In this document: piece after piece, positions 9,953 to 44,064 of the stretch | Position numbering within the stretch: position 1 is the stretch's first letter | How the letters are laid out: each line of letters begins with the position of its first letter | Assembly: GCA_964649365.1 (NCBI GenBank) | Contig: CAZYPJ010000002.1 | Coordinates: 11,263 to 56,682, forward strand | DNA: 45,420 nt | From: an uncultured Anaerolineales bacterium | GTDB lineage: Bacteria > Chloroflexota > Anaerolineae > UBA1429 | Reading direction: 5' to 3' | Program-made: the position numbers and the translations under genes | The notes under the pieces: generated by a model | What the model saw: the letters and a program-made list of their open reading frames with translations, nothing else | Told to the model about the DNA's origin: nothing | The model's database searches: none

Positions 9953-11455
9953 ATGCGCATCGCTTTGGTCTCGCCCAAATGGAACCAGATGGTTAACAGC
10001 TATCCCCCGCTTGGGCTAGGCTATCTGGCCGCAGTGATGGAAGCCGAAGGCCACACGGTGACGATTCTGGATTTGGGGCTGCACCCCGATACCTCGTTGG
10101 AGCAAGACCTCGAACGCCTGATCTCCTTTCAGCCCGATCTGATGGGAGTGACGGCCATGACCAACAACTATCATAGCGCCGAGCGCATCCTGGCGTTGGT
10201 CAAAGCGCGGATCGGCTGCGTGACCGTGTTAGGCGGGCCGCACGCTACGATTTTCCCCGACCGCGTGATCGCCGATCCGAATATTGATTATGTGATCTAT
10301 GGTGAAGGCGAAGAGACGCTGCGCGATTTGACTCGCGTCATTGCTAGCAAGGCCCAACCCGATGAAGCGACGCTTCGGGGCATTGCTGGTTTGTGCTACA
10401 AGGTTCATGGCCAGCCGACCCTCAACCAGCCTCGTCCCCACAACCGCAATATGAACGCTCTACCCATGCCCGCACGGCACTTGTTCGAGCTAGAACGTTA
10501 CCCGCTTTATACCCCCAGCGGCGAGCGCATGGTCACGCTGCTTTCCAGTCGCGGTTGCCCTTATAATTGCAGCTATTGCTTCAAGGGCATCGTGGGGCGC
10601 ACCTATCGGCAGCGTAGCCCCGAGAGCATCATCGCTGAGTTGCATCACCTCAAGGATACTTACGGCTATCGCCATTTCTAGTTTATAGATGCCCTCTTTA
10701 CCCTCGACCGTCGCCGCCTAACGGCCCTCACGACGCGGATGATCGAGGAAAAGCTCGATATTCGCTGGCAATGTCTGGCGAGGGTGGATCGCGTGACGCT
10801 CGATCTGTTGCAACTTATGTATCGGGCCGGTTGCCGCGAAGTGCATTACGGCATCGAATCGGGCAACGCCGAGATCCTGCAGGCGTTGGGCAAAGAGATC
10901 ACCCACGATCAGGTGCGCCGGGCTGTGGCCTGGACGGCGCAGGCGGGAATTATGGCTAAGGGCTATTTCATGCTCGGCTTACCTGGCGATACAGAAGAAA
11001 CCATGCAGCAGACGATCCAGTTCGCCAGCGAGCTAGAGTTGGATCAGGCCATGTTCAGCCTCACCACGCCCTTCCCTGGCACGCGCTTGTGGGATGAACT
11101 CGTAGCGCGCCAGCCCGATGTGGTGTTCAATCGCGATTTTTCGCAAGCGTTCTACTATGCCAATTACGACAATCCCGTCAAACCCTTTTTCAATGTGTCA
11201 CAAGTATCCGACGAACGCCTGACCGCGTTGGCTGCTGAGGCGCAGACGCGCTTTCAGGAATCCAAGCGACGACGCAAGTACGTGCGCGCCTTTGGCTCGG
11301 CGGTGGGACAATTCATGTACAACCTGTCGCGGTGGCGCGGCATTCGCAGAGCGGCGCACCGCCTGCTTAATACCCGCTTGCTGCGCAGCCTGCGCGGCGC
11401 GACCCAGATCGGCGAGTACGACGCCAAAAAGGAATACTCCCAGCGATGGAACTAA
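9953..11455 (+). pseudogene. B12-binding-domain radical SAM enzyme interrupted by one in-frame TAG (10679-10681)
   Basis: Track ORFs 9953-10681 and 10739-11455 are in the same frame, and the sequence between them is open except for the TAG. The first part carries the B12-binding-like N-domain and the CPYNCSYC (CxxxCxxC) cluster. The read-through sequence ...KDTYGYRHF*FIDALFTLDRRRLTALTTRMIEEKLDIRW... aligns residue-for-residue with the intact paralog at 42625 (...RERYKIKIINFQDDTFTLDRDW...). RBS GAGGGA precedes ATG 9953. Confidence 0.75.
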
Positions 11456-12453
11456 TCACCAAGATCGGGCGGCGATTGCAGCGTTACGAGCGTAGCGCCA
11501 AAATGGCCGGCCGGTATATCAACTATAGCTTGCACAATGTGCGCCCGTGGGCTTATCCTGATCGGATGTATCTCGAATCTACCAACGCCTGCAACCTGCG
11601 TTGTATCATGTGCCCTACAGGGTGTGGTCTAGCCAAACGTAAAAAGGGTTTTTTGGATTGGGACCTGTTCCGCCAGATTGTGGACGAGATGGCCCCGCAT
11701 GTAAGCATGACCACGCTGCACATTTGGGGGGAGCCGTTGCTGCACCCGCGCATCGTCGAGATGATCGCTTATTGTCGTGACCGCGGTCTGCACGCCGAGA
11801 TTTCCACCAACGCTGTGCTGTTGACGCCCGAGATCAGCCAAGCGATCCTCGACGCTGGGCTGGGGGCCATCTATCTCTGCCTCGATGGCGTCACCGCCGA
11901 AACCTACGAAAAAGTGCGTCGCGAGGCCAGCTTTGAGCAGACCCGCGAGCACATCCTGAAATTCTTGGAGCTACGCACGCGCGGCGGCTATGAACGCCCC
12001 CGCACCAAATTGCAGATCATCGAACTGGCGCCCACGGTGGATCAAATCGAGGCGTTCAAACACACCTGGAGCGTGCCTGGCGTGGATCAAATCAACGTCA
12101 AGGCATTCGACTCATGGGGCGAGCAGGTCGCCGATATCAGCTCGTTGCGCCCCGGCGAGACGCCAAATTTGCCGCCGCGTTACCATTGTCCCAACCTTTG
12201 GTATCACGCACACATCTATTGGGATGGCACGCTGGTCTGCTGCGACCGCGATTTCGACGCCAAATACCCCCTGGGCAATGTGCAGGACGGCGTCATGAAC
12301 GCCTGGCGCGGCCCCGCTATGACCCGCCTGCGGCTCAAGCACCTCAATCACGATCTCGATGATGTGCCTTCGTGCGGCCCTTGTATCGAATGGGCTTGGT
12401 GGCGCCCCACTTGGACTACCGCTCAGGGCAACGCCCCAGTAGAAAGCAAGTGA
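11446..12453 (+). CDS. Radical SAM / SPASM-domain protein
   Basis: ESTNACNLRCIMCP (CxxxCxxC). The Cys-rich C-terminal region is ...YHCPNLWYHAHIYWDGTLVCCDRDFDAKYPLGNV...VPSCGPCIEW (SPASM/twitch-like). The ATG overlaps the stop of the upstream gene (ATGGAACTAA). Confidence 0.88.
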   Translation: MELITKIGRRLQRYERSAKMAGRYINYSLHNVRPWAYPDRMYLESTNACNLRCIMCPTGCGLAKRKKGFLDWDLFRQIVDEMAPHVSMTTLHIWGEPLLHPRIVEMIAYCRDRGLHAEISTNAVLLTPEISQAILDAGLGAIYLCLDGVTAETYEKVRREASFEQTREHILKFLELRTRGGYERPRTKLQIIELAPTVDQIEAFKHTWSVPGVDQINVKAFDSWGEQVADISSLRPGETPNLPPRYHCPNLWYHAHIYWDGTLVCCDRDFDAKYPLGNVQDGVMNAWRGPAMTRLRLKHLNHDLDDVPSCGPCIEWAWWRPTWTTAQGNAPVESK

Positions 12454-12462
12454 GGCGTTGCC

Positions 12463-13995
12463 ATGAACTCGGATCGCCTCACACTAGCGTCTCGTAATCG
12501 CTGGGCCGCGCCCTTGACCACGCTCGTCCTCGTCGCGTTGGCGACGGCGGCGCGTTGGTTTGGCATTGGCGCCGAGTCGCTCTGGCTCGACGAGGCCACT
12601 AGTCTGATCCTGGCGCGTATGAGCGTGCCCGAACTAGTTCGCTGGACGGCGCTCGATATTCATCCCCCGCTCTATTACACATTGTTGCACTTTTGGCGTT
12701 ATCTGGGCGAAAGCGAGGCCGCTATACGCAGCCTCTCGGCGCTGGCCGGGGTGCTGAATGTGCTGGTCATCGCTGCGCTAGGTCGGACGCTGTTTGAACG
12801 TCGCACGGGTTGGATCGCGGGATTATTGCTGGCGCTGGCGCCGCTACACGTTTGGTATTCGCAAGAGGCGCGCATGTACGCCTGGATCGCGCTGCTGGTT
12901 ACTACATCGTTGTGGCTAGCGATAGAAGCGTGGCTTGAGCCTACACGCTGGGTGCTCTGGGTTGGTTACGTGCTTGCCACCACTGCCGCGCTCTATACGC
13001 ACTATTACGCCGTGTTCGGGATCTTGCTCGCTAACCTGTTCTTTCTTTATCTGCTCATCCGCCGCCGTTTGACCAAACGCCTGTTCTGGAGTTGGGCGGC
13101 GGCGCAGGGGGCGGTGTTCGCCCTGTTTCTGCCGTGGTTGCCCACTTTTCTGTTGCCCATCACCGTGGGCGGGGGCGGATGGGTGGCGCTGGGGATGGGT
13201 AAGCCTTCAGTCGCCGTTTTGGCGCAGACGGCAGTGCTCTATATGGTGGGCATGGGGCGGGCGCTCTATCCGGCGCTGATTCGCCGTGCGGCCTATGCTC
13301 TGTTCGTGGGCTTGTTCCTGGTGGGGCTGTGGCCGCGCAAAAGCGTCGCACAGCCTGGAGAGGAGTCGCCGCGCCTGTTTAGCGAACGCGAGACCGTCGG
13401 TTTTTGCCTGGCCTACCTGGTTGCGCCGCTTGGGATCGCCTGGGTGTCGTCGCAGCTCTTCAAGCCGATGTACTCGGCGCGCTACATGCTACCGTTCTTG
13501 ATGCCTTTTGTGTTATTGACAGCGCGAGGTGTGGGGCGCATTCCCTGGCGCGTAGGACGGATAGCGACGCTGGCGGCGCTGGTGGGTACCCTCGTCGTAG
13601 GGATTGTGGCTCAAACCAAGATGATGGACAAGCCCGATTGGCGCAGTTGGGCGCAGCAGATCGCCGCTCGCGCTGAACCGGGGGATGTGGTAGTGTTCGT
13701 GCCTGGGTGGCATGCCAAGCCATTTGATTATTATGCGCGCGGCGCGGTGGAACTCTATGGCGATGTGCCTGTGCCGGTGGATCAGTTCGGCCAGCAAGCC
13801 CTCGACGCAGTAGCGATGGCCATCCGGAACCACCCTAGAGTATGGTTTATCTGGGAGACCGACCATTACACCGACCGCGACGGGCAGGTATATCGCTACC
13901 TAGCCGAACCCTGCCGCCAAATCGAAGAGCACGACTTGCCGCTGGTGGGGCGCGTGATTGTGTTCGATAATTCCGCAAGCAAAGGGCACCCCTAA
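12463..13995 (+). CDS. GT39 / PMT_2-family (ArnT/Pmt-like) GT-C membrane glycosyltransferase
   Basis: Polytopic membrane protein. Loop-1 motif is AESLWLDEATS followed by DIHPPLYYTLLHFW and HVWYSQEARMY. It has a soluble C-terminal domain. RBS GAGG lies 7 nt upstream of the ATG. Confidence 0.88.
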   Translation: MNSDRLTLASRNRWAAPLTTLVLVALATAARWFGIGAESLWLDEATSLILARMSVPELVRWTALDIHPPLYYTLLHFWRYLGESEAAIRSLSALAGVLNVLVIAALGRTLFERRTGWIAGLLLALAPLHVWYSQEARMYAWIALLVTTSLWLAIEAWLEPTRWVLWVGYVLATTAALYTHYYAVFGILLANLFFLYLLIRRRLTKRLFWSWAAAQGAVFALFLPWLPTFLLPITVGGGGWVALGMGKPSVAVLAQTAVLYMVGMGRALYPALIRRAAYALFVGLFLVGLWPRKSVAQPGEESPRLFSERETVGFCLAYLVAPLGIAWVSSQLFKPMYSARYMLPFLMPFVLLTARGVGRIPWRVGRIATLAALVGTLVVGIVAQTKMMDKPDWRSWAQQIAARAEPGDVVVFVPGWHAKPFDYYARGAVELYGDVPVPVDQFGQQALDAVAMAIRNHPRVWFIWETDHYTDRDGQVYRYLAEPCRQIEEHDLPLVGRVIVFDNSASKGHP

Positions 13996-13996
13996 G

Positions 13997-15517
13997 ATGG
14001 TGCGCGGCGCGTCACTCCAAACTAAGCCAAGATGGGATCTGTGGGTCGTTGGCGGGCTGACTGTCTTGGCCCTGGCTTTGCGCTTCTATCGCCTCACCGC
14101 CGAAAGCCTATGGTACGACGAAGCCTATAGCGTTTGGTCGAGCGCGATGGACATCGCCTCGCCGCGCATCCTGTGGGAGTGGCAGATCGAGTTCCCGCTC
14201 TATTACTGGCTGCTCCATATTTGGATGCGGCTTTTCGGCCAGGGCGAGTTCGCGGTGCGCGCTTTTGGCGCGCTGGCGAGCGCGGCCAGCATCACGCCGA
14301 TGTACTATCTGGCCAAGCGACTGTTCGGCCCCACTACCGGCGAAATCGCGGCTTTTTTATTGGCGATCAACCCCTACCATGTATGGTATGCCCAAGATGT
14401 GCGGATGTATCCTTGGGCGTTGCTGTTTGTCACCGTCTCATTGCTCGCTTTTTGGCGTGTGGCGCAGGGGGGCGACTGGGGTTGGCGACTGGTCTATGTG
14501 CTGGCGACGGGTCTCACTTTTCACTTGCATTACTACATCGGCTGGCTGGTGTTGGCCGAGAACGTGTTTGTGCTGGTCGCGCTGTGGCGCGAGCACGGCA
14601 ACCCCTTTTGTCGCGCCGCATGGCTCAAGCTGCGCTTCTGGCTGGCGGCCCAACTTGGCGTGGCGGCGCTGGCCGCGCCGGCGGCGGCGGTGTTTCTGAC
14701 CAAAGCGGTCACGCTGAACCAGTGGGACTGGCTAGCGCAACGTTACGGCGCGCCTGGCCCGCGTGATGTGATCGCGTTGTTTCTATCCTACACTGTAGGT
14801 ACGTTATTTCCCGCGACCTCATCGGTGCGCTGGGCGGTATTGGCGCTCTTTGGTGGGCTGGCTGCCTGGGGCGTATGGTGGGCGCTGGGGCGTGTTCGTC
14901 GTCACGAAACGCCGGGCGGGGCGCTGGGGTTCACGCTGTTGGCATTGATCCTGCCGTTGTTTGCCTGCTTTGCTCTGGGGCAACGCTATTCGGTATGGGT
15001 GACGCGCTACCTGATCCTGTTCCTGCCGCTCTATCTGATCTTGGTAGCGCAAGGCGTCGTCTCGCTCGCGCCTGAGGGAGCGCCGCCATCCTGGCAGCGA
15101 GTGGCCAGCAGGATGCTGGCGCTCCTTTTGGCGGCGCTTGTAAGCGCCTATGCCCTGTGGGCCATGTACACTACGCCGCAAAAAGAGGATTGGCGCGGCG
15201 TGACGGCCCATATCGCAGCACGGGCCGCACCCGATGATTTGATTGTGCTGATGGACGAAGAGTGTCGCGTACCCTGGGATTATTACTATGGCAGCGGCGG
15301 GCGACGTATCGGGGTGAGCCGCTTTGCTGATGATGCTGGGTTGGATCGTGCGTTGGCCGAGATTCAGCAGCAACAACGCGGCAGATACTTGTGGTTAGTG
15401 GTGAGCCATGCCGATAGCGCTGATCTGGAGCAACGCTTGGCAACCTTGCCCAATTTATCGCCTGTGGAGTCGCCATCTTTTATCGGCGTCAAACTAGTGG
15501 TCTATCGTTGGCGGTGA
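13997..15517 (+). CDS. GT39 / PMT_2-family GT-C membrane glycosyltransferase (paralog of 12463)
   Basis: AESLWYDEAYS, EFPLYYWLLHIW and HVWYAQDVRMY are co-linear with the upstream paralog. ATG 13997 lies 1 nt after the upstream TAA. The track start 13958 would overlap the previous gene. Confidence 0.88.
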   Translation: MVRGASLQTKPRWDLWVVGGLTVLALALRFYRLTAESLWYDEAYSVWSSAMDIASPRILWEWQIEFPLYYWLLHIWMRLFGQGEFAVRAFGALASAASITPMYYLAKRLFGPTTGEIAAFLLAINPYHVWYAQDVRMYPWALLFVTVSLLAFWRVAQGGDWGWRLVYVLATGLTFHLHYYIGWLVLAENVFVLVALWREHGNPFCRAAWLKLRFWLAAQLGVAALAAPAAAVFLTKAVTLNQWDWLAQRYGAPGPRDVIALFLSYTVGTLFPATSSVRWAVLALFGGLAAWGVWWALGRVRRHETPGGALGFTLLALILPLFACFALGQRYSVWVTRYLILFLPLYLILVAQGVVSLAPEGAPPSWQRVASRMLALLLAALVSAYALWAMYTTPQKEDWRGVTAHIAARAAPDDLIVLMDEECRVPWDYYYGSGGRRIGVSRFADDAGLDRALAEIQQQQRGRYLWLVVSHADSADLEQRLATLPNLSPVESPSFIGVKLVVYRWR

Positions 15518-15528
15518 GCGAGGCCCAC

Positions 15529-17439
15529 ATGAGTGCAGCGAGCAACCCGACACGCCGAGTTTGGGCCACGCACCTGGCGGTGATTCTTGCCTATGGGTTG
15601 CTCACGCTGGTCATGACCTGGCCGCTGGCAGCGCGATTCAATCGCGCAGTGTTGGGGCCGCCGGGCGATAATCTGGAATATGTCTGGAAGATGTGGTGGT
15701 TCAAGCACGCATTGCTTGATCTCGGCGTCTCGCCGTTTTTTGCGCCGGATGTGTTCTACCCGTTCGGCTATCCGGTGGCGCTTTCGGAGACAACCGTGAC
15801 GCACACCGTGCTCGGGTTGCCGCTCACCGTGCTGTGGGGCGAGGTAGCATCCTATAACACCATGATAGTGTGCTCGTTCGTACTCAGCGGCTATGGTCTC
15901 TATCTCTATTTGCGCGGAATGGGCTGCGGCGTGGCGGGAAGCTTCATCGGCGGGGCGGCGTTTGCATTTTGCCCTTACCGGATGTCGCATCTAGGCGCGG
16001 GACATCTGCCACTCATGGGCACGGGCTGGATTCCGCTTCTGCTGTTGGCATTGGAGTGGTTGATACATAAGCCAAATGGATGGCGCGGCGCGCTGGTGGG
16101 CGTGTGTTATGCGTTGACGGCGCTTTCCTCGTGGTATTACGCCGTGATGGTGGGCGCCTTTGCTGGGCTGTACTTGCTCGTGCGGGCGCGCCCCTGGCGA
16201 GTGATGCTGGGTTGCGCGCGGTTGTGGCTGGGGATGGAAGTTGCCGCTTTGGTCGCAGCGGCGCTGATCGCCCCCGCCGCGTGGCCCATCGTCAAGTTGT
16301 ACAGCGAAGGGCAGACTACATACAATTACGCTCTCAGTTATGTGGATCAGTGGTCGGCCAGCCCACTGGACTTTGGCTATCCGAATGCCATGCACCCTTG
16401 GTGGGGCGGCTTTCTGACGACGCATTACTATCAAAATATCAACGAGAACCTGGTCTATCTGGGTTGGGCTGCGCTGGTCCTGGCGGCGCTGGGGTTGTGG
16501 GCGCGCCATCGTGATCCCTGGCCTCGAAACCTGGCTCTCTTGGGGCTGATCGCACTGATCCTGGCGCTAGGTACGACATTGCACGTGGCGGGCAAACCGA
16601 TTTATGTTCGCGTGCCCCAGGGGATAGAGTATCAGTTCTCGCGGGCAATGTATGTACTGACGGGCAAACTGGCGTTGCACCGGGTGGATTACAGCCCTCT
16701 ACGCCGCGAGGGGGCCATCGTGTTGCCGTTGCCGACGCTGCTCCTTTATCTATTCGTCCCGACTATGAACGCTATGCGTGTATGGAGTCGCTTTGGCATC
16801 TTGGTGATGCTGATGGTGGCCGCATTGGCGGGCTTGGGCGGCGATGCTTTGCTGGCGCGGATCGGGACGCAGCGGCGTGCGGGGCGCAGCATAATCGGAG
16901 TAGCCCTCGCGTTGCTGGTGCTGGTTGATTTCGCCGCGCTGCCCTATCCCTATGGCTATACGGAGGTCAGGGGGCAGCCGGTGGACGATTGGCTGGCGCA
17001 GCAGCCAGAGGGTACGCCCATCATCCACTATCCGCTAGACAAGACCTGGTACGGCTGGATGCTGTACCCGACGCGGATACACGGCCAGCCCATCGCTTAT
17101 GGCTATGGCACGTTCGCGCCGGAGGCGTACCGCGCGAGCCAACCGACCCTGGAGATGTTTCCTAGCGCCGAATCGCTGGCGCTATTGCGAGAATGGGGCG
17201 TCAAATACGCCCTGGTGGGGGCGCACAGCTATGGCGACGCCTGGCCCGAGATCGAGCGCCAGCTGGCCGCCGCGCCTGGCGTGCAGCTGGTGGCGGTGTT
17301 CGAGGATCGTCCGCTGTACGGCGGCGACCGATTGCTGCATCTGGCGCGACCCAGCGCCGATGTGCCCTCGACTGAGTTGATCAGTGGCCCTTATCAGACC
17401 TATCTGAACGATGAGATTCACGTCTATGCGATCCAATAG
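15529..17439 (+). CDS. Polytopic membrane protein, YfhO/GT-C-like putative glycosyltransferase (paralog of 37605)
   Basis: More than 10 predicted TM segments. N-terminal motif: LTLVMTWPLAARFNRAVLGPPGDNLEYVWKMWWFKHALLDLGVSPFFAPDVFYPFGYPVALSETT. C-terminal soluble part: AYGYGTFAPEAYRASQPTLEMFPSAESLALLREWGVKYALVG. Both segments are conserved in the protein at 37605. The track start is TTG 15508; ATG 15529 is preferred. Confidence 0.75.
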   Translation: MSAASNPTRRVWATHLAVILAYGLLTLVMTWPLAARFNRAVLGPPGDNLEYVWKMWWFKHALLDLGVSPFFAPDVFYPFGYPVALSETTVTHTVLGLPLTVLWGEVASYNTMIVCSFVLSGYGLYLYLRGMGCGVAGSFIGGAAFAFCPYRMSHLGAGHLPLMGTGWIPLLLLALEWLIHKPNGWRGALVGVCYALTALSSWYYAVMVGAFAGLYLLVRARPWRVMLGCARLWLGMEVAALVAAALIAPAAWPIVKLYSEGQTTYNYALSYVDQWSASPLDFGYPNAMHPWWGGFLTTHYYQNINENLVYLGWAALVLAALGLWARHRDPWPRNLALLGLIALILALGTTLHVAGKPIYVRVPQGIEYQFSRAMYVLTGKLALHRVDYSPLRREGAIVLPLPTLLLYLFVPTMNAMRVWSRFGILVMLMVAALAGLGGDALLARIGTQRRAGRSIIGVALALLVLVDFAALPYPYGYTEVRGQPVDDWLAQQPEGTPIIHYPLDKTWYGWMLYPTRIHGQPIAYGYGTFAPEAYRASQPTLEMFPSAESLALLREWGVKYALVGAHSYGDAWPEIERQLAAAPGVQLVAVFEDRPLYGGDRLLHLARPSADVPSTELISGPYQTYLNDEIHVYAIQ

Positions 17440-17459
17440 TCATTCGAAGAGGAGTGAAC

Positions 17460-18551: not shown

Positions 18552-18559
18552 GTCAACTG

Positions 18560-22336: not shown

Positions 22337-22347
22337 CGGAGGTTGGT

Positions 22348-23049: not shown

Positions 23050-23066
23050 GATCGAGGTGATGAGCG

Positions 23067-30630: not shown

Positions 30631-30652
30631 TATCAATATACGAGGAAGCCAC

Positions 30653-35649: not shown

Positions 35650-36813
35650 ATGGGTTCTCTTCACTATATGAAATACGCCAAGCGCATCCTTTACAAGCGC
35701 GGCGCCTCTCCTCTCTATTTTGTGTATTTCGTTACCGAAAACTGCAATGCTCGCTGCAAACATTGCCTGTTGGGCCAGCGCGAAGGCCGTGTGACCGGCG
35801 AGCTGACCATTGACGAGATCGCCAAGGTCTCGGCCAGCATGGATGATATGCTCTTTTTTACCCCTACCGGCGGCGAGCCTTTCTTACGCGCCGACCTGCC
35901 CGAGATCGTCAAGATCTTTCACACCAACAACCATGCACTGAATGTGGGTATCCCCACTAATGGCAGCATGACTGCGCGCGTAATGCGCTCGGTGACCAAG
36001 ATGCTGGAAGAGAACGATAATCTCGACTTGCACATTGACGTCTCGATTGACGGCTTGCCCGAATTGCACGACGAAATTCGCGGCGTACCCGGCTTGTTCA
36101 ATCGCGCCATCGAGACCTACCAATCGCTGCGCGAGCTGGAAAAGCACTATCCCAAGTTTAGCACCTGCATTCAAGTGACAGTCTCGGCCTATAATCAGCA
36201 CCAATTGCTCGAACTGTATGACTATTTGAAGCGCGGCGTAGGCGTCAATACCGTGTTCAGCCTACTCACGCGCGGCGAGCCGCGCGACCCCGCCGCCAAG
36301 GGGTTCGACATCAGCAAATACGAGGAATTTCATCGCGTGCTGGAAGAGGACAACAAGAAGCTGATGCTCAGCGGCTACTACAAGATGCCCTTTTCTGATG
36401 TGCTCAATGCCAAGCGCATCGTGCGGCCACGCATCATCGCCAAGACGGTGCGCGAGAATCGTTTCCAAATCCCCTGTTATGGCGGCACATTGGGCGCGGC
36501 GATGTTTAGCCATGGCCAGGTGTTGCCTTGCGAGCTGCGCTACAACGATGTGATCGGCAACGTGCGCGACGTGGACTATGACTTTATGAAGCTCTGGCGC
36601 AGTCCCAAGGCCGAGGAGTATCGGCGCGATATTCGCTGCAACAAGTGTTTTTGTACGTATGAGTGTTTCCTCACTGTCAATATCCTGTTCAACCCACTAG
36701 TTCTGCCTCGAGTGGGGTGGGAATACCTTCAACTCAAAGGGGCCAAACTGCGCCATCGGCTGGCGGGCGGCAAAATCGTTGAGGCGACGCCATTGGATGG
36801 CCCGGCCAGCTAA
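35650..36813 (+). CDS. Radical SAM / SPASM-domain protein
   Basis: MGSLHYMKYAKRILYKRGASPLYFVYFVTENCNARCKHC (CxxxCxxC). The C-terminal region is ...IPCYGGTLGAAMFSHGQVLPCELRYNDVIGNV...IRCNKCFCTYEC (SPASM-like Cys cluster). The track ORF from 35380 is a 5' over-extension. Confidence 0.87.
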   Translation: MGSLHYMKYAKRILYKRGASPLYFVYFVTENCNARCKHCLLGQREGRVTGELTIDEIAKVSASMDDMLFFTPTGGEPFLRADLPEIVKIFHTNNHALNVGIPTNGSMTARVMRSVTKMLEENDNLDLHIDVSIDGLPELHDEIRGVPGLFNRAIETYQSLRELEKHYPKFSTCIQVTVSAYNQHQLLELYDYLKRGVGVNTVFSLLTRGEPRDPAAKGFDISKYEEFHRVLEEDNKKLMLSGYYKMPFSDVLNAKRIVRPRIIAKTVRENRFQIPCYGGTLGAAMFSHGQVLPCELRYNDVIGNVRDVDYDFMKLWRSPKAEEYRRDIRCNKCFCTYECFLTVNILFNPLVLPRVGWEYLQLKGAKLRHRLAGGKIVEATPLDGPAS

Positions 36814-36854: not shown

Positions 36855-37595
36855 GTGTACAAGGGGCACACGATCTCGGTGGTCATACCTTGTTATAACG
36901 AAGAAAAGGCCATCGGCGCGACGCTGGCCGATATGCCCAGTATCGTTGATGAAGTGATCGTGGTGGATAACAATTGTGTGGATCGCACGGCCGAAGTGGC
37001 GCGCAGCCTGGGGGCCACAGTGGTATGCGAGACGCGCCAGGGATACGGCGCGGCCTACAAAAAGGGCTTTCGCAGCGCCACTAGCGACATAATCGTGACA
37101 ATGGATGGCGATGGCACCTATCCGCGCAGCTTTATTACCGCGTTGGTAGATGTGCTGCTCGTCGAAGAACTCGATTTCATCACCTGTGACCGCACGGGCT
37201 ACAAGAGCAAAGGATCAGGCACACCCACGCGCGTATTTGGCAATTGGGTGTTGAGTGTAGTGCAGACGGTACTCTTTGGGCAGCGCGTATCCGATTCGCA
37301 ATCGGGGATGTGGGGGTTCAAGCGTTCGATCTTGCCGCTGATCGAATTGACCAGTGATGGGATGCCTCTCTCAGAAGAGATCAAAATCGAGGCGTTCGCC
37401 AATCCCAAGATCAAGGCGCGCGAACTGCCGATCTACTATCGCGCGCGCCTGGGCGAGAGCAAGCTCAATGTATGGAAAGATGGTTTTAGGAATCTGTTGT
37501 TCCTATTTCATAAACGTTGGCAGATGTTTGGCTTTGTGAGGCGGCGACGCGGTTTTCAGCCGGTTATCTCGGCCACAGCGATGGATGACAAGTAG
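36855..37595 (+). CDS. GT2 glycosyltransferase (DPM1/GtrB-like lipid-phosphate sugar synthase-like)
   Basis: ISVVIPCYNEEKAIGATLADMP...VIVVDNNCVDRTAEVA...GYGAAYKKGF...IVTMDGDGTYP. GTG start follows AAGGAAAAGGGG. Confidence 0.86.
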   Translation: MYKGHTISVVIPCYNEEKAIGATLADMPSIVDEVIVVDNNCVDRTAEVARSLGATVVCETRQGYGAAYKKGFRSATSDIIVTMDGDGTYPRSFITALVDVLLVEELDFITCDRTGYKSKGSGTPTRVFGNWVLSVVQTVLFGQRVSDSQSGMWGFKRSILPLIELTSDGMPLSEEIKIEAFANPKIKARELPIYYRARLGESKLNVWKDGFRNLLFLFHKRWQMFGFVRRRRGFQPVISATAMDDK

Positions 37596-37604: not shown

Positions 37605-39605
37605 ATGACGGCTCAACCAGCAGCGATTCCCCAGGCTCGAGCGTGGAATTTACGGCTTGGCTCTTGGACGACCAAGCTATTCGTATTGCTGCTGTTCGCC
37701 ATCCTCACTGTTGGCATGACCTATCCACTTATCCTGAACTTGCGCACCGCTGTGCCCGGCCCGCCATGGGATAATTTCGTTTGGCTGTACGACCTCTGGT
37801 GGTTTCGGCACAGCATCGTAGATTTGCAGCAGTGGCCTACCATCAACCCGACCATCTTTTACCCCTTCGGCTACGATTTGCGCTTGTCCGAGACGACGCT
37901 GGCCACCAAGCTCCTGGCCGCCCCCTTTTTGTTCTGGGGCGATGAAATCTTGGCCTACAACGCCGTGTTGTTGCTCAGCTTTGTGCTGACGGCCTATGCT
38001 ACCTATTTGCTGATTGCCTACCTGACCGATAACAGCTACGCCGCCATCGTTGGTGCGGCGGTGTTTGCCTTTTGCCCATTCCGTATGCACGCCATGGCTG
38101 CGGGCTGGTTGCCCTTGATGGCCACGCAATGGATCCCGCTCACTTTCTTGTATCTAGAGCGTACCCTGCGCGACGGCAAGGCGCGCTATGCCCTGGTGAC
38201 GGGCCTGTTCATGGCGCTCACGATTCTTTCGTCGTGGTACTATCTCTATATCGTCGGCCCAGCAGTTTTGCTCTACCTGCTCATGCGCATGAGCAGACTC
38301 AAAGGATCTATTGATCGCGCCCAGCTCACCCGCAACCTGATGTTTGCCGGCCTGGTAATACTGGTCATGGTGTTGCCGGTAGCGCTGCCCGTCGTCATGC
38401 AACAATCGGGTTCGATGGGCTGGTCGGTGGCGGATGTAGAAAAATGGGCTGCCAGCGCCGAGGATTTCTTCATCCCTAATGTCTATCACCCCTTTTGGGG
38501 CGAATATTTCCTCTCGCTGCGCGCCGAGACCCTACGCTACCCTTGGTATGCGCCTGGGTTCGTCTATCTCGGCGTGGTGGCCATGTTACTAGCGGCAGGC
38601 GCGTTAGGGCGCAAGCGCGGCGCTAGCGACATCACGAGGCCATTCGTCTGGTTGGCTGTTCTCTTTTTGTTGATCGGCTTGGGACTGGTGTTGCACTGGG
38701 GAAACCGGGTAGTGACGATACCGGTGCCGGAAAAGGTAGAAACCTGGTACGTGCGCATCATGTCCACATTGATGAGCAAGCTGGCCTGGCACAAGGCTTC
38801 TTTGTATGATTTCGATTTTCAGCGAGGAACAGTCCCGATCCCTTTACCGGCGTTGTTTTTATACCTCTTTGTGCCTCTGGGCAATGCTATGCGCACCTTT
38901 TACCGTTTTGGCGTCATCACCATCTTTGCTGTGTCGGTGCTGGCGGGCATAGGCGCGGCCCATATCTTGGGAGGCAGCAGGGCGCCCGATATTGGGCCAA
39001 AGGGCAAGTACGACGTGATGCCTGCCCCTGAAGTCAGGCGCAAGAGTCGTCCCAGTATCGCTACTGCTACAGCCATCCTGCTGGGGCTGGTTCTGTTCGA
39101 TTTTTGTAGCGTGCCGTTGCCTTATGGCATGTCAGACATCAAGCCGCAGCCGCTGGATCGCTGGTTAGCCGCCCATCCCGACGATGTGGTGCTAATGCAA
39201 TTCCCTACTATTCGCGCCCTGAGTGGCGACAGCCTCTACCGCACCAAGTTTCATGGCAAGAGGGTGGCCTATGGCCACGGCACATTCTATCCGCAGAAGT
39301 ATCTCAAAGCCATGCCTACATTGGCCACATTCCCCAGCGAGGAGAGCCTCAAACTGCTGAAATCATGGGGCGTCACGCACATCGCTGTCGGCTCGCAAGC
39401 CTATGACGCCGGCTGGGGCGACCAACAAGGTCAGACGTGGGAAACAGTGCGCGCCCAGATCGAAGCCAACCGAAACCTCAAATTAGTAGGCGTCACCTAT
39501 GACGAACCTTTCTGGCGCGACGAGCACGTCTCGGGGATCATCTATGGCAGCCCTCCCGTCGTACCCATCCTGGTTGACAAAGTCTATGTTTACGAGTTGC
39601 GATGA
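37605..39605 (+). CDS. Polytopic membrane protein, YfhO/GT-C-like putative glycosyltransferase (paralog of 15529)
   Basis: LTVGMTYPLILNLRTAVPGPPWDNFVWLYDLWWFRHSIVDLQQWPTINPTIFYPFGYDLRLSETT and AYGHGTFYPQKYLKAMPTLATFPSEESLKLLKSWGVTHIAVG match the same positions in the 15529 protein. Confidence 0.75.
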   Translation: MTAQPAAIPQARAWNLRLGSWTTKLFVLLLFAILTVGMTYPLILNLRTAVPGPPWDNFVWLYDLWWFRHSIVDLQQWPTINPTIFYPFGYDLRLSETTLATKLLAAPFLFWGDEILAYNAVLLLSFVLTAYATYLLIAYLTDNSYAAIVGAAVFAFCPFRMHAMAAGWLPLMATQWIPLTFLYLERTLRDGKARYALVTGLFMALTILSSWYYLYIVGPAVLLYLLMRMSRLKGSIDRAQLTRNLMFAGLVILVMVLPVALPVVMQQSGSMGWSVADVEKWAASAEDFFIPNVYHPFWGEYFLSLRAETLRYPWYAPGFVYLGVVAMLLAAGALGRKRGASDITRPFVWLAVLFLLIGLGLVLHWGNRVVTIPVPEKVETWYVRIMSTLMSKLAWHKASLYDFDFQRGTVPIPLPALFLYLFVPLGNAMRTFYRFGVITIFAVSVLAGIGAAHILGGSRAPDIGPKGKYDVMPAPEVRRKSRPSIATATAILLGLVLFDFCSVPLPYGMSDIKPQPLDRWLAAHPDDVVLMQFPTIRALSGDSLYRTKFHGKRVAYGHGTFYPQKYLKAMPTLATFPSEESLKLLKSWGVTHIAVGSQAYDAGWGDQQGQTWETVRAQIEANRNLKLVGVTYDEPFWRDEHVSGIIYGSPPVVPILVDKVYVYELR

Positions 39606-42598
39606 AACGACATTATGTTTTGTATTTGTGGTGTTTGCCGTTGATTGTTGCGGCGATTGTTGTAGGGCAATTCGGCTCTAGCCCGGTAGTTGCTACGGGG
39701 GCGGTGCCCGGGCCAAGCGCTGGCGTTCCCCGATTGCTGACCACCGTATCTACTACCCTAGAGCTTCGCCGCGGCTTGAATGGTTACAATGGCGTCGCTG
39801 ATACGTATCTCTTGGCCAATGAGGGCGCCGTCAGCCCGCACGGCGGTGAAGATACGCTCCACATCAAAGAGAGCGCCTATGCCACCAAGCGATCGCTCAT
39901 CCGTTTTGATCTGGCTGCCGCCGGGATTCCATCCAACGCTACCATTACCGAAGCCTGGCTCGAGTTATTTGTGAGCTACCGCTATCCCGCCAATCCGGCC
40001 TCGGTCACTGCCTATTATTTGCTTAAACCCTGGGATGAAGCCTCTGCTACCTGGAACGTAGCTTCAACTGGACAAGGTTGGGCGTCGCCAGGTGCGGGCA
40101 GCGCCGGATCGGATTATGAAGCGACCGCCGCCGCTTCCGCCGCGTTCAGCACTTCATATGCTTACAACCGCATCAACGTGAAAAGCGCCGTCGAACGTTG
40201 GCTGCAAAATCCTGATGCCAACTATGGTTTGTTGCTCATGGGCAGCACCATTGACTTACGCGTCTGGAGTTCCGAAGATGTACGCGAAGGCGAGCGCCCT
40301 CGTCTTGTTATCACCTACGACGCGCCTTCCGACTATACGCCCGAACCTACTCGCTCTGCTACACCTACCCGCACGCCGTCGGCTGACGCCAGCCCGACGC
40401 CCACGCCGGCCAATTACATTTATTCTACAGGCTTGACCGAGGCTTTTGGGACTTCATACCCGAACTGCATCGAAGCCGGACCATCGGCGGTGAACCCCGA
40501 TAATACTGAGGTGCTGTTGATCTGGCAGGGCCAGGCTACCACTGCGAAATTGAGCTTTCTCTATTCGGGCAATAACAATCGCCACCATTCGGTGCTGGTC
40601 AACGATCAGATCATCGGCGCGCTGCCGGGCGACAATTGGCAATCGGTGTGCACCGGGGGCAGCTCGGCTCAGCTATCGTTCGATCCCGCGTTGGTGGTGA
40701 GCGGCGAAAACAAGATCAGCATTCTGGCCGATGTGCCCGGCGAGACTAACAGTTGGAGTTTGCAGAATCCCCGCATTCAATTGGGCGGTTACGTTCAGGG
40801 AACCGACATCAGTGTGGTCGAGTTGACTTCTAGTTACGATGGCACCACACAACGGGCGATGATCCAGAAGCCTATCGGCTATTCGACCAGCGTGGCCACG
40901 CCGTTGGTGCTTGGTCTGCACGGTTGGGGCGGGCGCGACTATGATGCTATGACCTGGTTGGCAGAGGCTTGCAACAATCGTGGTTGGCTGTTGGCTTGTT
41001 CCGACACGCGCAACGACAACCAACACACCGCCTCTAAGGCTGTACAGCACGACGTGATGGATTTGCTGAACTATATGCTGGGCAGCGACGAATACAACGT
41101 GGACGCTTCGCGAGTCTATCTCATCGGCAGCTCGATGGGCGGTATGATGGCGGCGACTATCGCTGCCAAATATCCCGACCGTTTTGCGGCGCTGGCGGAA
41201 CTCAAAGGCCCTACCAGCCTGGATGCCTGGTATTACGAAATAGAAGCCTGGCGGCAAGCTGTGATTTACACCGAAATGGGAACTTCGCCAGCCAACGCTC
41301 CTTTTAGTTATCAGCGAGCTTCGGCGGCAGCCATGGCCAGGAACTTGCGCAATGTCCCAACCCTTATCATTCACGGACTGAACGATGTAACAGTCCCTTA
41401 TCATCACGCCGAAGATCTATACACAGCAATGGTCGCTAGTGACGCTACGGATGTGGCTCTGTATCCATTCACAGGAGGGCACAGCGACGATCACCCTAAT
41501 TGGAACAACGACCAGATTATGGGCTTTTTCGCCGAGCATACCTTGAACGCGAACCCGCTGACTGTGACGGTGCGCACCGATGAGCCCAAGTCATATTACT
41601 GGATGAATATATCGCACGGTGTCTCGGACCATTGGACGCAAGCCAGCGCCTACCTCAACCCCGATACGCAGACTGTCACTCTGGAGGTGTTCGACGAACG
41701 CGCTACGCCTGCCTCGGTGGATATTACCCTCGACTTGACCAGAATGGGTTTGCCAACCGGCGTAGCCTATACGGTCGAGGACGCCAACTTGACCACAGGC
41801 GAGTTCTTTCAATACTCGACGCAGGCTAGTTCGACGTTGGTGTTGACTGTGCCCCGCGACCGCCATCGCTTGACGATCTATCCCTTCACAGCCGCCGCGC
41901 CTCAATCCATTACGCTGCGTCAGGGCGAGGGGGGCTATCAGGGGATGGTGGACACTTATATCGAGAGTTATGTTCGTGACGCCAACCACGACGCCGAGGG
42001 CCTGCGCGTGTCTTTTGGCGGCAACCGCACGCCTTTGCTGCGCTTTGACCTGGCGGGGCGCTTTGATGAACGCGCTGTGATCAAATCGGCGCAATTTGGC
42101 GTGTATAGCACCGCCAAGTGGAATTCGAGCGACAGCATCACTACCGGCATCTACAAGGTGCTGACCGACTGGACCTCGACTCAGGCTACCTGGGATGAGC
42201 GCTTCAGCGGCGCATCGTGGAACCAAGCGGGGGCGCTGGGATCGGGCGAAGATTATGATCCGACGCTGGTATCGTCGAACCAGATGGCCAATATCGGCGC
42301 CTGGTATCGCTACAATGTAACCGATTTGGTGCGCGAATGGGTAGCTAACCCGCAGAACAACCACGGGTTGCTGATCCGTGGCGAGACCGGCCTGGGCACG
42401 TTCACGCTCAATTCGAGCGAGGGCGCCTCGTACAAGCCTGAACTGATTATCTATTACACCGAAGCCACTAACACGCCCACGCCGACGATCACACCGACGC
42501 CCACGTACACAGCGACGCCCACCGTCACACGCACGCCGACGCAAAGGCCGACGCCGACGAATGCGGGCCGCGTCTATTTGCCCGCGATCGTGAAATAG
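39602..42598 (+). CDS. Secreted 998-aa protein: signal peptide, DNRLRE/CBM96-like module, Pro/Thr linker, beta-sandwich-like region, alpha/beta-hydrolase (esterase) domain, second DNRLRE module, Pro/Thr linker, short hydrophobic tail
   Basis: - Start and signal peptide: the ATG overlaps the stop of the upstream GT-C gene (ATGA at 39602-39605). Signal peptide is MKRHYVLYLWCLPLIVAAIVVGQFG.
- DNRLRE motifs, N-terminal module: DTYLL...SLIRFDL...LLKPWDEASATWN...NYGLLLMG...RPRLVITY.
- DNRLRE motifs, C-terminal module: DTYIES...LLRFDL...YKVLTDWTSTQATWD...NHGLLIRG...KPELIIYY.
- Esterase core: LVLGLHGWGG...YLIGSSMGGMMAA (GxSxG at ~41126-41143)...IIHGLNDVTVP...GGHSD.
- Pro/Thr linkers: approximately 40321-40413 and 42467-42561. 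Confidence 0.88.
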   Translation: MKRHYVLYLWCLPLIVAAIVVGQFGSSPVVATGAVPGPSAGVPRLLTTVSTTLELRRGLNGYNGVADTYLLANEGAVSPHGGEDTLHIKESAYATKRSLIRFDLAAAGIPSNATITEAWLELFVSYRYPANPASVTAYYLLKPWDEASATWNVASTGQGWASPGAGSAGSDYEATAAASAAFSTSYAYNRINVKSAVERWLQNPDANYGLLLMGSTIDLRVWSSEDVREGERPRLVITYDAPSDYTPEPTRSATPTRTPSADASPTPTPANYIYSTGLTEAFGTSYPNCIEAGPSAVNPDNTEVLLIWQGQATTAKLSFLYSGNNNRHHSVLVNDQIIGALPGDNWQSVCTGGSSAQLSFDPALVVSGENKISILADVPGETNSWSLQNPRIQLGGYVQGTDISVVELTSSYDGTTQRAMIQKPIGYSTSVATPLVLGLHGWGGRDYDAMTWLAEACNNRGWLLACSDTRNDNQHTASKAVQHDVMDLLNYMLGSDEYNVDASRVYLIGSSMGGMMAATIAAKYPDRFAALAELKGPTSLDAWYYEIEAWRQAVIYTEMGTSPANAPFSYQRASAAAMARNLRNVPTLIIHGLNDVTVPYHHAEDLYTAMVASDATDVALYPFTGGHSDDHPNWNNDQIMGFFAEHTLNANPLTVTVRTDEPKSYYWMNISHGVSDHWTQASAYLNPDTQTVTLEVFDERATPASVDITLDLTRMGLPTGVAYTVEDANLTTGEFFQYSTQASSTLVLTVPRDRHRLTIYPFTAAAPQSITLRQGEGGYQGMVDTYIESYVRDANHDAEGLRVSFGGNRTPLLRFDLAGRFDERAVIKSAQFGVYSTAKWNSSDSITTGIYKVLTDWTSTQATWDERFSGASWNQAGALGSGEDYDPTLVSSNQMANIGAWYRYNVTDLVREWVANPQNNHGLLIRGETGLGTFTLNSSEGASYKPELIIYYTEATNTPTPTITPTPTYTATPTVTRTPTQRPTPTNAGRVYLPAIVK

Positions 42599-42624
42599 GG
42601 TCATGCAGTAATCGAGAAAGACAG

Positions 42625-44064
42625 ATGCGAATCCTTTTGATTTATTCTGATATCAGCGGCGCCGAACACTACGGCGCCAAGAAATATTACTCCGGCGTGG
42701 GGTCCATCTCGGCGGTGTTGAAAGCAGCGGGCCATGAGACGCGCCTGCTTTATTTGCAGCGCCAACTCGACCGCGAAGCGTTCTTGGCCGAGGTCGAGGC
42801 GGTCTCGCCCGGAATGGTGGGCTTTTCGACCACGACCCATCAATATCCCTACATCGAGCGTTATGCGGGATATATAAAGGAGACGTGGCCTGATTTACCT
42901 TTGGTTTGCGGCGGCACGCATCCCACGCTCGTCCCGGAGCAAGTGGTTGCCAGCCCGAGTTTCGATATCGTCTGCGTGGGCGAGGGCGAATATCCACTGC
43001 GCGACCTAGCCGAACGATTGGCTGCCGGACAGGACTACGCCGACATCCCCAATCTGTGGCTGCGGCGCAATGGCGAGGTTATCCGCAACCCGTTACGCCC
43101 GCTGATCGCCAACCTCGACGAATTGCCTTACGCCGACCGCGAGTTGTTCGATTATGACGCAATACTGGCGGCCAACGATGGCTGGGTAGATCTCATTGCC
43201 GGGCGGGGTTGCCCTTACAACTGCTCGTATTGTTGTAACCCAGGACTCAAGAAACGCTATGGCGGCTTGGGCAAATACGTGCGTTTTCGCGGAGTGGAAC
43301 ACGTCGTCGGCGAAATCCGTGCGTTGCGCGAACGCTACAAGATCAAGATCATCAATTTTCAGGATGATACCTTTACTTTGGACCGCGACTGGGCATTGGC
43401 TTTTTGCCGAGCCTATGCCGCTGAGTTCGAGTATCCATATTGGATCAACACCCGCGTTGAGCGCATCTTGGGCGATGAAGAGCTGGTCAAGGCGTTGGCC
43501 GATTCCCATTGCGCCGGTATCCGCGTGGGGGTCGAAAATGGCGACGAGACGCTGCGCGCCAATGTGCTCAAACGGCGGATGTCCAACCAAGAGATCATTG
43601 ACGCTTTCCGTCTGGTGCGTCGCTATGGGCTGAAAGCCTATACCTGCAATATGATTGGCATTCCGGGCGAGACGCCCGCGAGCATTCAGGCCACTATTGA
43701 TCTGAACCGCGCTCTGTCGCCTGACGAGTTCCAATTCTCGGTGTTCTATCCTTACCCAATGACCGAGCTGTATGATACCTGCGTGGAGCAGGCGCTCATC
43801 AAGCCGGGCGCTGAGCTGTCCAGCTATTATAGTCAAGAGAGCGTGCTGCGCCTGCCCACGCTGACCGACAAGCAACTGGCCGAGGGGTACGCGCGTTTCG
43901 AGGCGCTCAAATCCGAATTGGCGCTCAAGCGCGCCAGCCCGCTCAAGCACCGACTGTACACCCTTTTGCTCAAGCTCTATCGCGACGATGCGCCTCGCTT
44001 GCAGCGCCATCTGGTTGCGCTGCGCAGGCTGCGTCGTCGTATCCTATCGAGATCGCGAGCCTAA
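42625..44064 (+). CDS. B12-binding-domain radical SAM enzyme
   Basis: MRILLIYSDISG...VGFSTTTHQY...LVCGGTHPTL...DIVCVGEGEYPL (B12-binding-type N-domain), GRGCPYNCSYCCN (CxxxCxxC), IINFQDDTFTLDR. Confidence 0.88.
   Translation: MRILLIYSDISGAEHYGAKKYYSGVGSISAVLKAAGHETRLLYLQRQLDREAFLAEVEAVSPGMVGFSTTTHQYPYIERYAGYIKETWPDLPLVCGGTHPTLVPEQVVASPSFDIVCVGEGEYPLRDLAERLAAGQDYADIPNLWLRRNGEVIRNPLRPLIANLDELPYADRELFDYDAILAANDGWVDLIAGRGCPYNCSYCCNPGLKKRYGGLGKYVRFRGVEHVVGEIRALRERYKIKIINFQDDTFTLDRDWALAFCRAYAAEFEYPYWINTRVERILGDEELVKALADSHCAGIRVGVENGDETLRANVLKRRMSNQEIIDAFRLVRRYGLKAYTCNMIGIPGETPASIQATIDLNRALSPDEFQFSVFYPYPMTELYDTCVEQALIKPGAELSSYYSQESVLRLPTLTDKQLAEGYARFEALKSELALKRASPLKHRLYTLLLKLYRDDAPRLQRHLVALRRLRRRILSRSRA

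Follow-up and report, generated by a model that had tools for sequence, protein, structure and literature searches.

What would a single bacterial locus do with five radical S-adenosylmethionine (rSAM) enzymes interleaved with glycosyltransferases? The question is raised by a 45,420-nt stretch of DNA (all of which is referred to below as the window) from an uncultured Anaerolineales bacterium (GenBank GCA_964649365.1, contig CAZYPJ010000002.1). The window corresponds to C2:11263–56682 of the source metagenome-assembled genome (MAG; 611 contigs, 4.67 Mb, 92.6% complete, 7% contamination), and its 3′ end coincides with the end of the contig. The enzymes are labelled A to E by their gene starts in the window (A 9953, B 11446, C 31378, D 35650 and E 42625). 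Their density exceeds chance, as ~30 Radical_SAM matches are present in the 4.67-Mb genome and five of these fall within 34 kb, where 0.22 would be expected (Poisson p = 3.5e-6). The answer favoured here, with moderate confidence, is that the five enzymes form one co-inherited tailoring set, serving an accessory pathway for cell-envelope glycans or glycoconjugates in Anaerolineae. DNA near-identical to the window is present in biogas, sludge and anaerobic-digester metagenomes, and the MAGs in which close homologues occur are labelled Anaerolineae, Anaerolineales or Chloroflexota.

Co-inheritance was assessed in 61 relatives, many of them fragmented MAGs, with Fisher tests that take genomes as independent, without correction for phylogeny. 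A and B are found in the same 15 relatives, always adjacent, and C in 13 genomes that all lie within these 15, while D and E are each found in 10. All five are present in 8/61 relatives and none in 46/61, giving a nested distribution (AB ⊇ ABC ⊇ ABCDE) with pairwise p values of 3e-6 to 6e-14. The five rSAM genes are therefore one co-inherited set, not the independent tailoring enzymes pictured in the initial annotation, which had been made from the window sequence alone. A sample of 301 genomes from the phylum yielded orthologues of B, C and E in just four (G000, G012, G061 and G077), and orthologues of D in G000, G012 and G061 alone. Of the genomes in the window's own family, some have the set and others lack it. 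The locus is thus accessory, with a patchy distribution in Anaerolineae.

Judged from gene order, the link between the rSAM genes and glycan assembly is conserved, not accidental. Association with genes for GT-C-type and family GT2 glycosyltransferases, Wzx, a short-chain dehydrogenase/reductase (SDR), acyltransferases and methyltransferases is seen again in several families of Anaerolineae, and the phylum sample adds two more families. Adjacency of the rSAM genes to one another permutes between lineages, and the partners stay constant: PMT_2 GT-Cs, the HpnA-like SDR, the hexapeptide acyltransferase, methyltransferases, Wzx and a secreted CBM96/S9 esterase. The genes fall into units: (i) A overlapping B and adjoining PMT_2 GT-Cs; (ii) PMT_2, class I methyltransferase, C, HpnA-like SDR and hexapeptide acyltransferase; (iii) GT2, D, a small polyprenyl-phosphate-sugar-synthase-like GT2 and a GT-C-like membrane protein; and (iv) CBM96/S9 esterase, E, MetW-like methyltransferase and Wzx, followed by GT4s, Wzz and Wzy. 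The gene order of the window is common to G309 and several Anaerolineales MAGs, and the block formed by GT2, D, GT2, the GT-C-like gene, CBM96/S9, E, methyltransferase and Wzx is kept down to 55–60% identity.

The order E, methyltransferase, Wzx is invariant in loci L001–L003 and L035–L041; in the syntenic loci L001–L003 a full Wzx gene is followed by GT4s, Wzz and Wzy, and the window holds only the N-terminal part of Wzx. The GT2-D-GT2 triad is present in L003, L037, L039–L042 and L073, and a helix-turn-helix (HTH) gene, A, B and two PMT_2 genes are kept in this order in GCA_014360825.1 (L004). PMT_2, A, B, C, hexapeptide acyltransferase, CBM96/S9, SDR and methyltransferase genes are contiguous in G077:C34. 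PMT_2 precedes C and the SDR, with or without an intervening methyltransferase, in G061:C19, G012:C257 and G303:C44, and the SDR is found adjacent to C or close to it in L001, L070, L071 and L072. In G061 the row A-B-E-D is contiguous on one contig (G061:C26, where the E orthologue is a complete open reading frame (ORF) on direct reading), and on a separate contig C, SDR, acyltransferase, methyltransferase and Wzx genes adjoin a PMT_2 gene. In-frame fusions of C to a class I methyltransferase occur in both orders, with the methyltransferase C-terminal in G303:C44 (753 amino acids (aa); L074 1495–3753) and N-terminal in G311:C529 (771 aa; L075 6–2318). E homologues number >700, and those of Omnitrophota and Dehalococcoidia (36–41% identical) lie among GT4, GT2, GT9, Wzy, methyltransferase and nucleoside-diphosphate (NDP)-sugar genes, with a MetW-like methyltransferase gene adjoining the E-like gene in an Omnitrophota locus (L043). 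A glycan context had been proposed in the initial annotation, and its retention across families, the distant E homologues in polysaccharide loci and the sugar-acting character of the nearest solved enzymes (see below) all bear this out.

Three further arrangements were seen in these comparisons. In GCA_040961035.1 (L073 12715–21200) a complete GDP-heptose-type cassette (SIS_2/GmhA-like, GHMP kinase, HAD phosphatase, nucleotidyltransferase, transaldolase plus epimerase, SDR and a GFO/IDH/MocA gene) lies directly downstream of GT2-D-GT2-GT2 and ends at an 809-aa PMT_2 GT-C; since it abuts the GT2-D-GT2 block, heptose is a candidate substrate for D. The source genome holds a second pair of B12-type rSAM and SDR genes (G000:C28; L062 7317–10951), with a 480-aa B12-binding rSAM gene followed by one for an NDP-sugar 4,6-dehydratase-like SDR, in an island divergent from genes for a membrane GT2, an MFS transporter, a galactokinase and a HAD hydrolase. 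In G061:C26 (L060 10362–10779), two small ORFs (71 and 72 aa) occupy a 590-bp gap between the B and E orthologues and look like a toxin-antitoxin pair by eye, from their translations; the corresponding gap in G012 (L008) is ~150 bp, without the two ORFs.

All five proteins score above the Radical_SAM gathering threshold (PF04055; A 83.5, B 59.9, C 30.7, D 47 and E 80.8 bits), placing them in the rSAM superfamily, and the cysteines of the CxxxCxxC motif (A 202/206/209, B 49/53/56, C 203/207/210, D 32/36/39, E 196/200/203) are invariant in alignments of orthologues. The five genes and motifs given in the initial annotation are thus confirmed, and the two architectures assigned there hold with qualifications. 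A and E exceed the B12-binding threshold (PF02310; 83.5 and 71.6 bits), and C falls below it (30.5 bits against a gathering score of 32.1; 23 bits for its orthologues). We know of no simple cobalamin-ligand motif for class B rSAM enzymes. SPASM (PF13186) is matched by B (42.5 bits) and D (24.5 bits), though neither contains the seven-/eight-cysteine motif (CX9-15GX4C ... CX2CX5CX3C ... C). The only invariant cysteines of B outside the core are C248, C266, C310 and C313 (spacing CX17C...CX2C); those of D are C276, C294, C333, C335 and C339, with C173 in ≥90% of sequences and C330 variable. The SPASM domain of B, and probably that of D, therefore appears to be a reduced, twitch-like version with cysteines for one auxiliary cluster. 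C and its orthologues (34–58% identity) have five conserved cysteines outside CxxxCxxC (262, 281, 301, 341 and 348), which could bind an additional Fe-S cluster. D is the best conserved of the five (84–90% identity within the family, where E has 71–79% and C 51–58%), a difference that points to unusually strong constraint.

Identity among the five is low (A/E 30%, A/C 27%; B and D have no detectable similarity), and by this measure they are separate, old families, all of them uncharacterised. Every one of the five falls short of all NCBIfam cut-offs. A, C and E score highest on BchE, HpnJ, the ladderane-lipid B12 rSAM, ApyD and AprD4, with top ratios of score to cut-off of ~0.4 (for A, BchE 200/481 and ladderane 158/360), and B and D on generic SPASM maturases. 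The equivalogs for HpnJ, BchE, ladderane-lipid B12 rSAM, HpnR and PhpK are accordingly not matched at cut-off by any of the five. Scores to the AprD4 family (NF033070, cut-off 500 bits) are 131 for E, 116 for A and 75 for C, so that these are AprD4-like without being members; the NAD(P)H reductase partner typical of that family is found for C only, as an SDR that is kept with it in three families. Membership of housekeeping families, which by the initial annotation would have refuted its reading, is not indicated by these scores, and the absence of the genes from 46/61 close relatives shows that they are not housekeeping ones.

Among solved enzymes, E (120 bits, residues 159–414), A (91 bits) and C (68.6 bits) all match AprD4 (PDB 6FD2) best, over the radical SAM core and the C-terminal part. 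B12-dependent methylases (QCMT/MgmA 9CCB, TokK, TsrM, CysS) score below AprD4 for all three, QCMT/MgmA reaching 88 bits with A. With its reductase AprD3, AprD4 forms an established pair in which an rSAM 1,2-diol dehydratase acts on a sugar and an NADPH-dependent reductase follows (PMC5461906); AprD4 falls within the B12-rSAM similarity network yet binds no cobalamin (PMC12931638). For B, the best sequence matches are BlsE, DesII, BtrN and PqqE, all weak (23–41 bits), and an AlphaFold2 model (predicted local distance difference test score (pLDDT) 80) has BlsE, BtrN and DesII as its top three folds (template-modelling score (TM) ~0.55). AbmM (8WM2) and BlsE are among the nearest solved enzymes of D, and its AlphaFold model (pLDDT 77) matches anSME, SkfB, BlsE, CteB, MoaA, SuiB and DesII about equally (TM ~0.5).

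From 9.3 kb to the end of the window every gene is on the + strand with gaps of ≤127 nt (Table 1), so that no intergenic space between 9.3 and 45.4 kb could hold a precursor-peptide gene; the initial annotation had likewise found no candidate precursor of a ribosomally synthesised and post-translationally modified peptide (RiPP). The stop/start couplings listed there are also present: the end of A runs 10 nt into B, the genes for C and the SDR have a single base in common (TGATG), and E is separated from its methyltransferase by 2 nt. Pfam matches further agree with its statement that the rSAM genes adjoin glycosyltransferase, methyltransferase and epimerase genes (GT-C, GT2, SDR and acyltransferase in these matches). 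Membrane proteins of glycosyltransferase type near the rSAM genes comprise four PMT_2 GT-Cs, one GT87 and three more large GT-C/YfhO-like proteins, one of which (15508–17439) has tblastn homologues at the syntenic position in L004, L040 and L041. The GT2 complement is four small Dpm1/PpgS/AglJ-like proteins, of which that at 23871 matches PpgS (92 bits), plus one of 334 aa. Tailoring genes include three class I methyltransferases, the hexapeptide acyltransferase and the SDR at 32724, which scores 313 bits over its full length on TIGR03466 (HpnA; cut-off 367.65). DegT, GNAT, NodB-type deacetylase (TIGR03006, 240 bits against a cut-off of 276), DUF2304, the secreted CBM96/S9 esterase and the start of a Wzx gene complete the locus. 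No nucleotidyltransferase or 4,6-dehydratase was found in the window by family matches of its proteins.

Table 1 Features of the rSAM locus (window coordinates).
Feature	Position	Strand	Basis and remarks
HTH protein (HTH_32/HTH_29/HTH_23)	9328–9825	+	Pfam; 62% identical gene directly upstream of A-B in GCA_014360825.1 (L004 8044–8505)
rSAM A	9953–11455	+	B12-binding domain and radical SAM core; TAG-interrupted in this assembly
In-frame TAG in A	10679–10681	+	GCC (Ala) nearby at 10691–10693 vs GAC (Asp) in other assemblies
rSAM B	11446–12453	+	Twitch-like radical SAM/SPASM protein
Two PMT_2-type GT-Cs	12463–15517 (12463–13995, 13958–15517)	+	Pfam; order A-B-PMT2-PMT2 kept in L004
643-aa polytopic membrane protein, GT-C/YfhO-like, paralogue of 37605–39605	15508–17439	+	No Pfam match
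DegT aminotransferase (LegC/PseC-like), GNAT acetyltransferase, 791-aa YfhO-like membrane protein	17454–21507	+	
Class I methyltransferase, three small Dpm1/PpgS-like GT2s, NodB-type deacetylase with DUF3473, GT87 GT-C, DUF2304	21500–27182	+	
Two more PMT_2 GT-Cs	27145–30630	+	Type found directly upstream of C in every lineage examined
Class I SAM methyltransferase	30593–31375	+	Ends 2 nt upstream of C
rSAM C	31378–32724	+	Weak B12-like N-terminal domain and radical SAM core
Extended SDR, HpnA-like	32724–33701	+	Start overlaps stop of C
Hexapeptide-repeat (left-handed beta-helix) acyltransferase, WbbJ/WcaF-like	33780–34481	+	Kept with C and SDR at 52–83% identity
GT2 glycosyltransferase, 334 aa	34565–35569	+	Always directly upstream of D
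rSAM D	35650–36813	+	Radical SAM with reduced SPASM domain
Small polyprenyl/dolichyl-phosphate-hexose-synthase-like GT2	36855–37595	+	AglJ 117 bits; dolichyl-phosphate hexose transferase 115 bits
666-aa GT-C-like membrane protein	37605–39605	+	Syntenic L003 gene annotated YfhO
Secreted CBM96 + S9/BD-FAE esterase protein, Pro/Thr tail	39602–42598	+	Found in every version of the locus
rSAM E	42625–44064	+	B12-binding domain and AprD4-like radical SAM core
MetW-like class I methyltransferase	44067–44756	+	2 nt downstream of E; 62–83% identical E partner in all syntenic loci
Wzx (MOP/Polysacc_synt) flippase, N-terminal part	44801–45409	+	Window ends 11 nt later at contig end

In the window A is interrupted, reading GYRHF*FIDALF at the TAG codon. 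Four independent metagenome assemblies have T at 10681 (TAT, Tyr) and A at 10692 (GAC, Asp), giving FYFIDDLF, and an internal stop is present in 0/14 orthologues of A from relatives. As the other assemblies and all 14 orthologues are intact, the copy in the window is a strain-level nonsense allele or an assembly error, and intact copies are the rule. Recoding of TAG (as pyrrolysine or a sense codon) was considered and is ruled out by the use of TAG as terminator in 10/32 genes, by TAT in the four assemblies and by the intact orthologues. In metagenome run X14 contigs break exactly at the TAG site, so both alleles may coexist there.

At the other end of the locus, the Wzx ORF stops after 202 aa at a TAG (45407–45409) 11 nt before the contig end, where syntenic Wzx proteins have 485–496 aa; the cause may be poor sequence quality at the contig end or another nonsense allele. 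The HTH_32/HTH_29 protein upstream of A resembles the N-terminus of IS630-type transposases. It is probably an operon regulator, not a transposase remnant, because it is kept (62% identity) directly upstream of A and B in another genome.

The best-supported pathway is one that relies on polyprenyl-phosphate-sugar donors and GT-C transferases, with a Wzx/Wzy branch. Common sugars would be activated and several of them loaded onto polyprenyl phosphate by the Dpm1/PpgS-like GT2s, and the cytoplasmic rSAM enzymes would then carry out C-H-activating steps on nucleotide-linked or lipid-linked sugars. With no nucleotidyltransferase or 4,6-dehydratase in the window, and four lipid-phosphate-sugar-synthase-like GT2s plus a deacetylase, tailoring of the lipid-linked form is plausible by analogy with ArnC/ArnD or HpnI/HpnK/HpnJ. 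C and the SDR would most likely act in the manner of AprD4/AprD3, by radical 1,2-diol dehydration to a deoxy-keto sugar and subsequent reduction, and the fused or adjacent methyltransferase and the acyltransferase would add methyl and acyl groups to the product. For B, an oxidation, deamination or decarboxylation of BtrN/DesII/BlsE type with one auxiliary cluster is most likely. A and E, with solid B12-type domains, might perform methylation or rearrangement, and D a step between two GT2 reactions. Products would be flipped and then either transferred outside the membrane by GT-Cs or polymerised via Wzx/Wzy, and the secreted esterase might trim what is exported. A more specific form of this scheme, in which the radical toolkit deoxygenates, C-methylates, oxidises or rearranges sugars on polyprenyl phosphate and the GT-Cs use these donors to decorate an envelope polymer or Pro/Thr-rich surface proteins, can be put forward only tentatively.

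Several observations weigh against a role in glycan tailoring or against the chemistry proposed. The chemical assignments rest on 20–35% identity to characterised enzymes, below NCBIfam cut-offs, and the best partial matches include lipid and tetrapyrrole enzymes (ladderane rSAM, HpnJ, BchE). The fold of D matches the peptide-modifying anSME, SkfB, CteB and SuiB as well as sugar enzymes. CobS (PF02654) has no match in the 92.6% complete source genome, which encodes several B12-domain rSAM proteins, so any B12 dependence would require imported complete corrinoids; this absence by itself decides neither for nor against the use of cobalamin. The Fisher tests are uncorrected for phylogeny and draw on many fragmented MAGs; such MAGs are also the source of both methyltransferase fusions, which could be frame errors. 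Around the A-B-E-D row of G061 there are GFO/IDH/MocA oxidoreductase, SDR, old yellow enzyme-type flavoprotein and enolase-superfamily genes and, within 19 kb, no glycosyltransferase. As a case against a glycan role this row is outweighed, because G061 also has C, SDR, acyltransferase, methyltransferase and Wzx genes next to PMT_2.

How the rSAM enzymes might act otherwise depends largely on which of these similarities is given weight. One special case of the favoured reading, expected in the initial annotation from the B12 domain, is that A, C and E are classical cobalamin-dependent enzymes that C-methylate sugars (GenK/Fom3/GenD1 type). The strong B12-binding matches of A and E and the match of A to the methylase QCMT/MgmA are in its favour, but AprD4, which binds no cobalamin, is the best solved match for all three, the B12 domain of C is below threshold, the top NCBIfam partial matches (BchE, HpnJ, ladderane) are non-methylases, C and E each have a class I methyltransferase of their own that a self-sufficient B12 methylase would not need, and no CobS was found in the genome. 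As stated, that expectation is not supported; C-methylation of this type by A and E is possible, if not indicated by the similarity tests, and as an account of all three enzymes it is doubtful. Another possible activity is one in which the rSAM enzymes act with the SDR and the methyltransferases on a membrane lipid or on the polyprenyl carrier, and on no sugar, in chemistry resembling that of hopanoid side chains, ladderanes or tetraethers. It would suit the partial scores of A, C and E on HpnJ and on the ladderane-lipid rSAM, the closeness of the SDR to HpnA (313 bits against 368), weak matches of B and D to tetraether synthase and the glycosyltransferase-free row of G061. This is improbable given family scores far below cut-off, the lack of a genuine squalene-hopene cyclase in the genome (best stretch 23.5 bits) and constant partners that are GT-C, GT2, Wzx, a sugar aminotransferase and sugar acetyltransferases; a hopanoid pathway, suggested by the SDR and the HpnJ-like matches, is rejected on the missing cyclase and the scores below cut-off.

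The SPASM-type enzymes open a different route, since B and/or D, possibly with others, could mature a secreted protein of the locus (the CBM96/S9 esterase or a giant CBM96-repeat protein) in the way of an anSME (formylglycine), thioether or epimerase maturase. The model of D matches anSME, SkfB, CteB and SuiB about as well as BlsE, and no version of the locus lacks a CBM96/S9 gene, which lies either between D and E or within the A-B-C group. D nevertheless always lies between two GT2s, even where the heptose cassette replaces the esterase neighbourhood, and the esterase is retained in loci without D (L001, L038). Its two CBM96 modules, as read from the translation, have no cysteine at the position of GCNG in the giant protein, and the other loci compared yielded no homologue of that protein. 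B has sugar enzymes as its top matches in sequence and fold and only four auxiliary cysteines. Protein maturation is therefore unlikely overall, and for D less likely than sugar tailoring. The evidence speaks neither for nor against modification of the glycoprotein itself, which the initial annotation had also raised. Weak partial matches to AhbD/NirJ, MoaA, PqqE and BchE, together with the many SPASM enzymes that are peptide maturases, would also be compatible with RiPP or housekeeping cofactor maturation (heme, molybdenum cofactor or bacteriochlorophyll type) placed in a glycan locus by coincidence. Scores two to ten times below curated cut-offs, the lack of room for a precursor, the toxin-antitoxin-like look of the small G061 ORFs and their absence from the G012 gap, and glycan synteny kept across families make this highly improbable, and a RiPP cluster was rejected, with no precursor space and no RiPP family cut-off reached (no search was aimed at the RiPP recognition element (RRE) domain). 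Tailoring of an envelope glycan or glycoconjugate by a co-inherited rSAM set remains the preferred reading.

If so, radical enzymes would furnish bacterial surface glycans with deoxygenated, C-branched or rearranged sugars, possibly formed at the lipid-carrier stage. Radical SAM sugar chemistry is, to our knowledge, known almost only from antibiotic pathways (AprD4, BtrN, DesII, GenK, BlsE). Literature searches on rSAM enzymes in glycan loci of Chloroflexota or Anaerolineae returned nothing relevant, and no description of a conserved five-enzyme set in a GT-C-rich envelope glycan locus was found in the searchable literature, rSAM tailoring of sugars being itself established in antibiotic pathways. 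Anaerolineae are filamentous, anaerobic digesters and sludge hold them in abundance, and next to nothing is known about the chemistry of their envelope; the locus could bear on the surface properties of flocs and filaments and on phage receptors, and could supply new biocatalysts. Should the toolkit reading be right, related modules in Omnitrophota, Dehalococcoidia and candidate phyla would represent a widespread, undescribed branch of glycan biosynthesis. The comparisons single out the pair of A and B, the trio of methyltransferase, C and SDR, D between its two GT2s, and E plus its methyltransferase as testable units. They also supply locus-positive and locus-negative genomes for comparative glycan analysis, such as G309, G316 and G321 against G318–G320 within one family.

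Among known systems, the cobalamin-dependent rSAM enzymes GenK, GenD1, Fom3, Fms7 and MoeK5 share the order of B12-binding domain and radical SAM core, and several act on sugars or sugar-like molecules; no specific similarity of the locus enzymes to C-methyltransferases of this kind was found, with the solved methylases TokK, TsrM and CysS scoring 20–45 bits. B resembles BtrN, DesII and BlsE, its top matches by sequence and fold, and its four non-core cysteines are enough for one auxiliary cluster, as in BtrN. It differs in the weakness of these scores, in its own N-terminal helix and Trp-rich C-terminal tail, and in always being paired with the B12-type A. In the handling of hopanoid-bound GlcNAc by HpnI, HpnK and HpnJ with HpnA (GT2 loading, deacetylation and ring contraction by a B12-type rSAM enzyme), the shared elements are a GT2 loader, a deacetylase, B12-type rSAM enzymes and a lipid-anchored sugar; the SDR of the window is nearly an HpnA, and A, C and E all have HpnJ among their highest partial scores. 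However, HpnJ scores are 85–164 bits against 578, the genome lacks a squalene-hopene cyclase, and the lipid here would be polyprenyl phosphate, with acceptors served by GT-Cs.

The three-component systems of extracytoplasmic glycosylation (GtrA/B/C, CsbB/GtcA/YfhO, ArnC/ArnD/ArnT and PpgS/Rv3779) contain no rSAM enzymes, and no GtrA-type flippase was recognised in the window. Common to them and the locus are the four Dpm1/PpgS-like GT2s, the eight GT-C-type membrane proteins (PMT_2, GT87 and YfhO-like), DUF2304 and a NodB-type deacetylase encoded directly after a PpgS-like GT2. AprD4/AprD3 differs from the enzymes of the window in sequence (~25–33% identity, in the core only; 75–131 bits on NF033070 against 500), in the true B12-binding-domain signature carried by A and E and functionally absent from AprD4, and in setting, which is an aminoglycoside cluster there and an envelope glycan locus with GT-Cs here, where C also has methyltransferase and acyltransferase partners. 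What C and its SDR share with AprD4/AprD3 is the two-enzyme logic, an rSAM gene translationally coupled to one for an NAD(P)-dependent SDR, and the substrate of AprD4 is a sugar.

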